Below, piece after piece: positions 11,784 to 13,520 of a stretch of 64,000 bases of DNA (within the stretch, counting starts at the first letter, position 1; each line of letters opens with the position of its first letter). Under the pieces are notes generated by a model. That model was not told the origin of the DNA and searched no databases. It worked only from the letters and a program-made list of their open reading frames with translations. A program made the translations under genes and the position numbers. Source of the DNA: Escherichia coli (GTDB taxonomy: Bacteria; Pseudomonadota; Gammaproteobacteria; Enterobacterales; Enterobacteriaceae); NCBI RefSeq assembly GCF_003334785.1, contig NZ_QOWV01000001.1. The stretch is one strand, 5' to 3'.

Positions 11784-13496
11784 TTAAGGTGTGGGTTGTG
11801 CCTCTTTGGTTGAGGGTTGCGTCGTTGCTGACTTAACGGTCGGACGCGTCGCCGGAACATTGTCACACGGTTGCTCTTTCGGGCAGATCAAATCCAGCAT
11901 TTTCAGCGTCACGCCATTGGTCCAGCCAAAGCCATCCTGTAATGGATATTCGCCACCGCCGCCCCCCGTTCCGGTGGTGCTGACATCATATTTTTCCACC
12001 AGCTTTTTCTCCCGGTCATAGGTGTGCTGAACATTGGTCAGGAAGTGCCAGCTAATGTCCATCGCCACCTCTTTTTGCCCGTAGTTTTGTAATCCTTCTG
12101 TCGCGACCCACTGTAACGGTGCCCAGCCATTTGGCGCATCCCATTGTTGCCCACTTTTCACCGACGTGGTGTTCAGGCCGCCGGGTTGCAGCAGATGTGT
12201 TTTCGTCGCCGTCGCCATTTTGTTGGCGCGATCTTTCGCTGCCGCATTGACGTACAGCGGGAACAGGGCGGCCGCGGTTAACTGATTGCGCACTTTATGA
12301 CTTTTCAGGTCGTAATCGGCATACCAGCCTTGTTGATCGTTCCACAGGTATTTTTCGATCCCTTTTTGACGGGCATTTGCCAGCGTTTCGTACTGGTTTG
12401 CCATCGCGTTATCTCCGGCAGCTTTGCTGGCGCGGGCGAGGATTTTTTCCATTTTAAACATCAGGCTGTTCAGATCGACCGGTACGATGCTGGTGGTGCG
12501 TAAGGTATTTAACTGCTGCGGGTTGTCCATCCAGCGCGAGCTGAAATCCCAGCCAGACGCAGCGGCAGAGCGCAGGTCGCGGTAAATTTCAGTGGCAGGT
12601 CGATTCGGATTGCTTTTGGCGGTGGCAATATCTTCCACCCATGACTCTGGTCGTGGCGTATCGCGATCGTCCCAGTAGCGGTTGAGAAGGGTACCATCCT
12701 GAAGTTTGACAACGCGTTTTTCCTGTTGTCCGGCTTGCAGGTTTTCAACACCGTCCATCCAGTAAGCATATTCTTTTTGCATTTGCGGCAGGTATTGCTT
12801 CAACGCGGCATCGCCTTCATGCTGCGCCAGTAACTCTACCATCAGGGCAAAGAAGGGCGGTTGCGAGCGGCTTAAATAGTAACTGCGGTTGCCGTTGGGA
12901 ATATGACCGTAAGTGTCTATTTCATGAGCAAAATTGGCCACCATATTCGCGACTTTATCCCAGTGACCGCTTTCGGCAAGTCCTAACATGGTGAAGTAAC
13001 TGTCCCAGTAATATACCTCGCGAAAGCGTCCGCCCGGCACGACATAAGGTTCCGGCAGCGGTAACAGAGAATCCCATTTTTCGGTGTTTTCGGTAGAACG
13101 CGTTAATACCGGCCAAAGTCCGTCAATATGTTCGCGCAGTGACTGCCCCTCTGGCGGAACATATTTCTCGCCTTCTTTCGGCAGGGTGAAATTGACGTTA
13201 ACGAAATGGCGCAGATCAAATCCGCTCTGGTTTTGCTGCATCCGATAATCAGCAAGGATCATCAGCGGATCGCTGTTCGGCACGGCATCGGCAAAGGTTT
13301 TTTGGTCCGGAAAAAGTTTGGCGTTTTGCACATCATTAAACAGCGGCCCTAATAAAATATCAGGCGGCTGTGGTGTTACCGGTGTTTCTTCTGCCTGCAC
13401 CGATAGCGCAGCGAAACACAAAAAGATACAGGCTGGAATTAACGCCATTTTTTGCGGGCGAGAAGGTGCGGGGGATAATGATATGGTCACCCCCAC
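11784..13496 (-). CDS. treA: Periplasmic trehalase, with the 5' end rearranged by an IS insertion (first 7 codons from the ORF-track GTG start lie inside the IS)
   Basis: 570-aa [38 protein letters not shown]...; the remembered K-12 N-terminus is [11 protein letters not shown]. The displaced ATG AAA TC is found as revcomp gatttcat at 14831..14838. An in-frame ATG at 13448 precedes an intact signal peptide. Confidence 0.8.
13482..13494. repeat. Left 13-bp inverted repeat of the IS (tatggtcaccccc)
   Basis: Exact reverse complement of 14818..14830; the match does not extend by even 1 bp on either side. Confidence 0.75.
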
Positions 13497-13520
13497 CTTA
13501 ACAGCAGTACGCTGTTAAGG
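13496..13520 (+). other. Perfect 10-bp-stem hairpin in the IS left end, just upstream of the recombinase RBS
   Basis: ccttaacagc-agtac-gctgttaagg; the RBS ggagag follows at 13535..13540. Confidence 0.6.

Follow-up and report, generated by a model that had tools for sequence, protein, structure and literature searches.

The stretch of DNA analysed here (the window) is a 64-kilobase (kb; 64,000 nucleotides, nt) segment of Escherichia coli contig NZ_QOWV01000001.1 from assembly GCF_003334785.1. It contains an intact copy of ISSfl8, a known insertion sequence of the IS1111 group whose insertion is guided by a seekRNA, and the copy lies within the treA gene. Between its left end and the start codon of its transposase gene, the element has a short leader with a perfect hairpin next to the left subterminal inverted repeat. 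This hairpin (P2) is the inner of two helices in a conserved leader fold; the outer helix (P1), which closes the fold, is formed between the left repeat and the region of the Shine-Dalgarno (SD) sequence and start codon. The features that make up the element and this arrangement are the following.

13476..14832, plus strand: complete ISSfl8 copy (IS1111 group), 1357 base pairs (bp)
13482..13494, plus strand: left subterminal inverted repeat (IRL), TATGGTCACCCCC, a perfect 13/13 match to the right repeat
13495..13521, plus strand: leader hairpin P2, with an 11-bp perfect stem and the 5-nt loop AGTAC
13535..13549, plus strand: SD sequence GGAG, GACCATC and ATG, which form the 3' strand of P1 and amount to a third, degenerate repeat copy oriented like the right repeat
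13547..14551, plus strand: transposase gene of the DEDD type, 334 amino acids, stop codon (14549-14551) included in the range
14818..14830, plus strand: right subterminal inverted repeat (IRR), GGGGGTGACCATA, a perfect 13/13 match to IRL

The element is identified by its gene product, its boundaries and its target. Copies of 1.36 kb that are 100% identical are annotated in about 190 complete E. coli genomes as 'IS110-like element ISSfl8 family transposase', and the identical protein carries PF01548 and PF02371 under the NCBI name ISSfl8 family transposase. A DEDD (RuvC-like) transposase with IS110-type N- and C-terminal domains is characteristic of the IS1111 group, and the identity matrix in the supplement of PMC11187229 places ISSfl8 with IS5075, IS4321 and ISPlu13. 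When the flanks 13376-13475 and 14833-14932 are joined, they give a 100% contiguous match of 200 nt to the intact start region of treA in more than 5300 genomes; therefore, the insertion is exactly 1357 bp (13476-14832). There is no target duplication at this insertion in treA. Three independent ISSfl8 insertions (in treA, a DUF4942 gene and an arn gene) have identical ends, a single orientation and the flank GGGGA^TTTC(A/T)TC, where ^ marks the point of insertion, so that insertion is specific for site and orientation as in the rest of the group.

An earlier note on this DNA, made from the sequence alone, had described perfect 13-bp inverted repeats followed at once by a perfect 10-bp hairpin, located 15 bp before the ribosome-binding site (RBS) of an IS1111-group recombinase. 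The repeats (13482-13494 and 14818-14830) do match at all 13 positions and the group assignment is right. The hairpin is present, perfect and abuts the left repeat, with a stem of 11 bp instead of 10; it does lie upstream of the RBS, at a distance of 13 nt and not 15. The premise that such repeats are unusual for the family is wrong. Subterminal inverted repeats separate IS1111-type from IS110-type elements, with lengths of 11-13 bp given in PMC11187229 and 7-17 bp in PMC11208160, and the perfect 13-bp repeat of ISSfl8 falls within the usual 11-13 bp. Since these repeats define the IS1111 group, a 13-bp repeat is expected in ISSfl8.

A 13-bp repeat pair is not rare on its own. The window contains four such pairs spaced 1.0-1.7 kb apart, two of which are overlapping registers of one pair, and each of 10 shuffles of the window gave between 0 and 4 (none in six of them). 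The other perfect 13-bp pairs (30041-31556 and 59158-60301; 1.1-1.5 kb apart) were rejected as element ends: they run across ordinary open reading frames with no transposase genes and are consistent with chance. The ISSfl8 repeat is convincing because its copies sit exactly where a transposase element ends and because relatives keep it; in these, the counterpart of IRL is ATGGTCACCCCC. Their left ends read TAATGAG-ATGGTCACCCCC and their right ends TTGCAA-AAAC-GGGGGTGACCAT-AGA. The 13th pair of the ISSfl8 repeat results from a G-to-T change at element position 7.

The arms of P2, ACCTTAACAGC (13495-13505) and GCTGTTAAGGT (13511-13521), form a stem with a stability of about -16.6 kcal/mol. The hairpin ends 13 nt before the GGAG of the SD sequence (13535-13538), and the ATG follows at 13547. 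The 64-kb window contains five perfect hairpins whose stems reach 11 bp or more, compared with 0.27 per dinucleotide shuffle. Conservation was analysed in 80 loci from species-representative genomes of Enterobacterales, Burkholderiales and Pseudomonas, with 64-90% amino-acid identity in the transposase, plus IS5075 and IS4321 (70%). Distant family members with 33-79% identity and about 20 different repeat sequences were added, and ISEc11 and an ISPa11-like element were recovered via protein sequences in the supplement of PMC11187229. The earlier note had staked its proposal on conservation in homologous elements, and both the repeat and the hairpin are kept in them. Nearly all of the relatives with 64-90% identity have a stem-loop at the equivalent place, and the sequences of the stems differ: ACCTTAACAGC in ISSfl8 is replaced by ACCCTGTGAGC, ACCCTATAAGT, CCTGCGAAGG and TCTCAGCG in relatives.

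A covariance model of P2 was built from 9 gap-free seeds and used to align 43 distinct left ends. The left ends L054 and L065, in which the stem is shifted by 2 nt, were left out of the seed. A search at E <= 1 also drew minus-strand matches to the right repeat, and E <= 0.005 was used. Standard pairs fill 87.4% of cells in the 43-sequence alignment, compared with 31-51% when the partners are slid, although these counts lean towards the model to which the alignment was fitted; alignment-free folds agree. Eight of the 11 pairs have compensatory changes on both sides (for example, GC in 19 and AU in 14 sequences, or UA in 18 and CG in 14), and the covariation score was reached by none of 500 shuffles. 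The arms vary freely yet stay complementary, which argues for base pairing and not for a protein half-site. A neutral palindrome that was inherited and has no function might be suspected, since the leader sequence of close relatives is largely common by descent. However, the covariation at 8 of 11 pairs disfavours it, as does the retention of pairing across elements of Enterobacterales, Burkholderiales and Pseudomonas with differing stems, and this explanation is extremely unlikely.

The partner of the left repeat in the outer helix is the translation start region. In the minimum-free-energy fold of ISSfl8, IRL forms the 5' strand of P1 through AUGGUC:GACCAU and CCCC:GGAG, and the helix encloses P2. 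The same arrangement, with the left repeat paired to the SD/AUG region and P2 inside, is the minimum-free-energy fold in nearly every leader. The ISSfl8 leader (13476-13552) has a folding z of -5.3. Among 60 relatives, the expected number of pairs between the repeat and the RBS is 8.3, compared with 4.2 for a shuffled repeat, and is higher for the true repeat in 57; the mean energy of the P1 duplex is -13.4 kcal/mol, compared with -7.9 kcal/mol for a shuffled left repeat. The distant elements extend this result to other sequences. Each of about 20 distant repeat classes has its own complement abutting the start codon, such as GUGGAUGCCUCC with GGAGGCAUCCAUG, GUGGACGGCCCCU with GGGGGCCGUCCAUG and, in ISEc11, GCAUCCC with GGGAUGC. 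Across 20 repeat classes, cognate duplexes have a mean of -15.3 kcal/mol and non-cognate duplexes -11.8 kcal/mol, and none of 20,000 permutations was as good as the cognate assignment. Thus, the ribosome-binding region is effectively a third copy of the repeat. An end-proximal sequence complementary to the SD sequence and start codon, as in fold-back repression, is therefore present in ISSfl8. The earlier note had listed three possible roles for the hairpin, and that of a 5' stem in a structured RNA that extends into the open reading frame is the best fit of the three, with P2 as the inner helix under the pairing of the repeat with SD/AUG.

The two ends of the element also form a putative promoter when they are joined. 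The features involved are listed below; the left and right extensions are counted from the 12-bp core repeat (ATGGTC..), since the 13th pair is specific to ISSfl8.

14808..14813, plus strand: junction -35 hexamer TTGCAA, formed only when the ends join
14830..14832, plus strand: right terminal extension AGA (3 nt); relatives keep CCATAGA at this end
13476..13482, plus strand: 7-nt left terminal extension TAATGAT; TAATGAG or TAATGGG is kept there in relatives

Asymmetric extensions outside the repeats, 7 bp on the left and 3 bp on the right, are a rule of the IS1111 family (PMC11187229). When the ends are abutted in silico, as in a circular intermediate, they read TTGCAA-N17-GATAAT in 42 of 42 distinct related elements. 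IRR supplies 13 of the 17 spacer nt. The -10 hexamer spans the junction (GA^TAAT), with GA from the right extension and TAAT as the first four bases of the left extension. By consensus, the predicted transcription start (+1) falls near base 4 of the left repeat (~13485-13486). Distant elements have the same geometry in 17 of 18 repeat classes. In these, a -35 hexamer of TTGCAA or TTGGCA immediately precedes the right repeat, which serves as a 16-17-nt spacer; the -10 hexamer takes 2 nt from the final bases of the right end and 4 nt from the opening bases of the left end; and the +1 is predicted at repeat nt 4. The junction promoter of ISEc11 is described as active in PMC11187229, which cites Prosseda 2006; by analogy, we infer an active junction promoter in ISSfl8. 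A consensus sigma-70 promoter scan of the integrated copy found no internal promoter. An intact GATAAT is present at the left junction of the integrated copy (window 13474-13479) because the ISSfl8 target ends in GA, mimicking the right end of the element; the best -35 hexamer is only TTGCGG at 15-nt spacing. The retained GATAAT could give the weak basal transcription needed for starting excision.

The explanation that we favour, with a confidence a little above even, joins the ends, the junction promoter and the P1/P2 leader fold into one system that limits transposase expression. Most likely, the leader fold limits or insulates the expression of the transposase and keeps its translation low. 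A transcript reading in from outside would carry the complete left repeat, so that P1 could close over the SD sequence and the AUG, and P2 would shorten the loop closed by P1. A U-tract makes P2 in most relatives look like an intrinsic terminator as well. Transcripts from the junction promoter in the ISSfl8 clade would begin within the repeat, so that the 5'-most bases of P1 would be missing, and a more open structure is predicted for them. The predicted start cuts P1 from about 11 to about 7 pairs in this clade, and the probability that the ISSfl8 SD-to-AUG region is unpaired rises from 0.31 to 0.55 when the RNA starts at the predicted +1.

If both repeats are considered together, the subterminal repeats of IS1111 elements may have a double purpose: apart from any function at the DNA ends, the left one would be an anti-RBS at the extreme 5' end of the transposase mRNA and the right one the spacer of the junction promoter, with translation gated by the site of transcription start and thereby by circle formation. 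This extension is tentative, though possible. If true, the hairpin would be the helix that makes the switch fold, and the arrangement could explain why the IS1111 repeats are 11-15 bp long, compared with 2-3 bp in IS110-type elements, which have the bridge RNA in the 5' leader.

Several observations weigh against the favoured explanation. RNAalifold predicted no pairs when given 59 left ends as aligned by MAFFT alone, since that alignment leaves the stems out of register. P1 shows no covariation within the close clade (permutation fraction of 0.36), because both of its strands are nearly invariant there. The ISSfl8 stem is followed by AAATCCCT, with 2 T in 8 nt, which is the lowest count of 43. 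The mean unpaired probability of the SD-to-AUG region rises from 0.32 to 0.46 with the predicted start and does so in 49 of 61 leaders, in a comparison that does not include a length-matched control. With the predicted start, P1 in the distant relatives would lose only about 3 of its 12-13 pairs and keep 9-10, so that in these elements P1 looks like a constant brake on their own transcripts too and not like a discriminator between outside and own transcripts. Wobble pairs are the remaining point. P2 has 40 G-U cells compared with 25 A-C cells and its sense strand is the stabler in 35 of 60 (p = 0.07), and the antisense strand of P1 is the stabler in 13 of 20 (p = 0.23). These statistics do not single out the sense RNA; therefore, a DNA-level or antisense reading is possible.

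Such a reading would take the palindrome and the third repeat copy by the ATG as sites for transposase binding or synapsis, as part of the donor recombination site or as an autoregulatory operator. What part the subterminal repeats play in end recognition has yet to be defined (PMC11187229), the whole hairpin falls inside the leftmost 50 bp of ISSfl8, and complementarity at the DNA level fits equally well with the lack of a clear excess of G-U over A-C in P1 or P2. However, arms that change freely while remaining complementary are typical of a base-paired nucleic acid and not of a half-site for a conserved protein. With transposase and seekRNA provided in trans, 50-84 bp of left end is enough for mini-elements of ISEc11 to move (PMC11187229; preprint 10.1101/2024.04.26.591405). 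This stretch excludes the leader hairpin of ISEc11 itself (+72 after the repeat) and its repeat copy, both of which lie beyond the first 50 bp, and by analogy this favours a regulatory over a recombination role. In ISPpu9, circle formation was retained after a left-end palindrome was mutated (PMC12288879). A role of the hairpin as part of the recombination site, as raised in the earlier note, is thus the least supported of the three it proposed, and action at the level of DNA in general seems quite unlikely.

The hairpin might instead be mainly an intrinsic (Rho-independent) terminator, which would insulate the transposase gene from read-in transcription and, on the circle, halt transcription after one round. 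Exactly such a terminator is found at the left end of IS200 (PMC4513863). The stem of relatives (for example, CACCCUGUGAGCGGUACGCUGGCAGGGUG, -21.8 kcal/mol) is followed by GUUUUUCUUU, which is also the consensus U-rich run, and 30 of 43 relatives have 5 T or more among the 8 nt past the stem. The suggestion of the earlier note that the hairpin blocks read-in transcription is therefore plausible for most relatives, but termination is unlikely in ISSfl8 itself. Of the two parts of an intrinsic terminator, ISSfl8 has the stable stem-loop and lacks the immediate 3' U-rich tract: the sequence after its stem is AAATCCCTTT, yet the perfect 11-bp stem is kept. The terminator part of the explanation therefore does not apply to the ISSfl8 copy. 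A consensus terminator scan flags neither the ISSfl8 hairpin nor that of its relative L004. A terminator located past the predicted junction start would also cut the element's own transcript for transposase and seekRNA, and the T-rich run could be a mere A/U-rich spacer 5' of the RBS. It is unlikely that the hairpin is mainly a terminator.

A further possibility is that the hairpin stabilises the 5' end of the junction transcript for transposase and seekRNA against 5'-end-dependent decay and plays no part in either translation or insulation. Stems at the 5' terminus stabilise E. coli mRNAs. The predicted start (~13485-13486) would place the hairpin 9-10 nt from the 5' end, and P1 in distant relatives would pair the extreme 5' end. 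However, the ISSfl8 clade would have about 9 unpaired nt at the 5' end, which is above the usual tolerance for protection, and a stabiliser leaves unexplained why the partner of the left repeat is the SD/AUG region. This explanation is improbable, and control of transposase expression by the leader fold is preferred.

A different, small leader hairpin was observed in many distant IS1111 members. It has the conserved sequence GGCAUC-N3-6-GUGCC and occurs at 488-503 in ISEc11 (L085), at 493-506 in L086 and in many of L105-L161. In most of them, 5-11 nt separate it from the left repeat; in ISEc11-like elements the distance is 48-72 nt, and the ISSfl8/IS5075 clade lacks it. The conservation of its sequence suggests a specific binding partner. 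Homology with the ISSfl8 hairpin is not claimed, as the sequences are too different.

The non-coding region that follows the stop codon (14549-14551) extends for about 280 nt to the right end and contains the target-recognition core of the seekRNA, as read from the sequence.

14676..14707, plus strand: target-recognition core of the seekRNA (bridge RNA)
14676..14683, plus strand: 5' guide GATGAAAT, complementary to the target top strand A^TTTCATC
14684..14697, plus strand: conserved stem-loop GGCTCACTGAAGCC between the guides
14700..14707, plus strand: 3' guide GGGGATTT, identical to the top strand GGGGA^TTT

A long downstream non-coding region with a seekRNA that matches both target strands is a property of the IS1111 group, and the order of the two matches, with the complement of the top strand first, is that of IS1111 seekRNAs (PMC11187229). 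In relatives with other flanks, the guides beside the same stem change to match their own flanks, which is the seekRNA or bridge-RNA logic of the family (PMC11187229; PMC11208160). A search of 13300-15000 against Rfam (evalue mode) gave no match, so there is no curated family for the leader or the seekRNA. Further downstream, in the second half of this non-coding region, AUAGAU (14769-14774) equals the right-end junction ATAGA^T, and CAUUA (14786-14790) is the complement of the left-end TAATG. These two segments may form a donor-binding loop of a long seekRNA; the CAUUA match is absent from IS5075.

The insertion point lies at codon 2/3 of treA (GGGGGA^TTTCATC), and the register is ambiguous within the shared GAT. 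The gene is on the minus strand (~11784-13475 plus 14833-14839) and is split after codon 2 (ATG AAA T^CC). Parted from its start codon and promoter, treA, which encodes periplasmic trehalase, is probably inactive. The consequence for the genome is mundane, namely the interruption of treA at its second codon by an ISSfl8 copy. The same insertion was found in only two complete E. coli genomes of the collection, JKHS016 and AST198.

Two observations concern individual relatives. The IS4321 copy of pYps.R2 (L084, ~1660-2002) diverges from IS5075 about 160 nt past the stop codon, is without a right repeat and adjoins a transposase gene of the Tn5403 family. It is apparently truncated, with part of the seekRNA region and the right end lost. 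The left ends of two Xenorhabdus elements (L007 and L030) have ATACAAG in place of the conserved TAATGAG, with the flank ..GATTAAAG; their left terminus is altered or recombined, and the repeat and hairpin are retained.

IS1111 and IS110 elements are the source of programmable bridge-RNA and seekRNA recombinases, and the control of their own expression and the purpose of their repeats are poorly described. The element and its repeat are already known, and the proposed leader control is a modest addition to the knowledge of IS1111. The IS1111 literature searched gave no account of the leader hairpin or of the repeat being complementary to the RBS, and an earlier mention in older primary papers is possible. 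Three points are added: at the start codon of the transposase gene there is always a complementary copy of the left repeat; the leader hairpin is maintained by compensatory change; and the geometry of the junction promoter is fixed across the family, with the right repeat as spacer, the -10 hexamer across the junction and the +1 at repeat nt 4. Together, these points give a concrete, testable model of expression control. They are also a practical warning for the design of mini-elements or expression constructs from IS1111/IS110 systems.

The arrangement resembles several known systems. In the fold-back inhibition of IS10 and IS50, a sequence at the end of the element is complementary to the RBS, so that read-in transcripts are poorly translated, and transcription from the element's own promoter begins between the two complementary segments. 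These elements have DDE transposases and constitutive internal promoters. Compared with IS10 and IS50, the escape of ISSfl8's own transcripts is only partial and is only predicted. The left end of IS200 (PMC4513863) is alike in that it combines a hairpin next to the end, acting against impinging transcription, with a leader structure that sequesters the SD sequence. IS200 differs in belonging to an unrelated family (HUH Y1 transposase, single-strand transposition) and in having no junction promoter; its terminator is demonstrated, and its two structures lie side by side whereas those of ISSfl8 are nested.

ISPpu9, of the IS110 group in the same superfamily, has a strong structure in the 5' untranslated region (UTR) that inhibits translation of the transposase mRNA, as reported in PMC12288879 with reference to Gomez-Garcia 2021. 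In contrast to ISSfl8, it has a long 5' UTR containing the bridge RNA, is regulated by antisense and sense small RNAs and has no subterminal repeats or junction promoter. ISEc11 (Prosseda 2006; Siddiquee 2024, PMC11187229) belongs to the IS1111 group and shares 13-bp subterminal repeats, an essential 3' seekRNA and the absence of target duplication, and according to PMC11187229 it forms a circular intermediate with an active junction promoter. Its leader also has a complement of the left repeat (GGGAUGC with GCAUCCC). It differs in a transposase identity of only about 35%, a 130-nt leader and the absence of a hairpin abutting the repeat; it has instead the hairpin GGCAUC..GUGCC, conserved in sequence, at 72 nt downstream.

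Closest to ISSfl8 are IS4321 and IS5075 (Partridge & Hall 2003, as cited in PMC11187229 and PMC11208160), which belong to the same clade with 70% transposase identity. Their layout is that of ISSfl8: TAATGAG, a 12-bp repeat ATGGTCACTCCC, an adjacent bulged hairpin and GGAGAACCATC-ATG on the left, then a non-coding region 3' of the gene that carries the same seekRNA stem, and TTGCAA..GGGAGTGACCATAGA as the right end. Their guides and targets differ, as they insert into the ends of Tn21-family transposons, compared with GGGGA^TTTC for ISSfl8. The hairpin of IS5075 is shorter and bulged, whereas ISSfl8 has a 13-bp repeat and has lost the U-rich tail.

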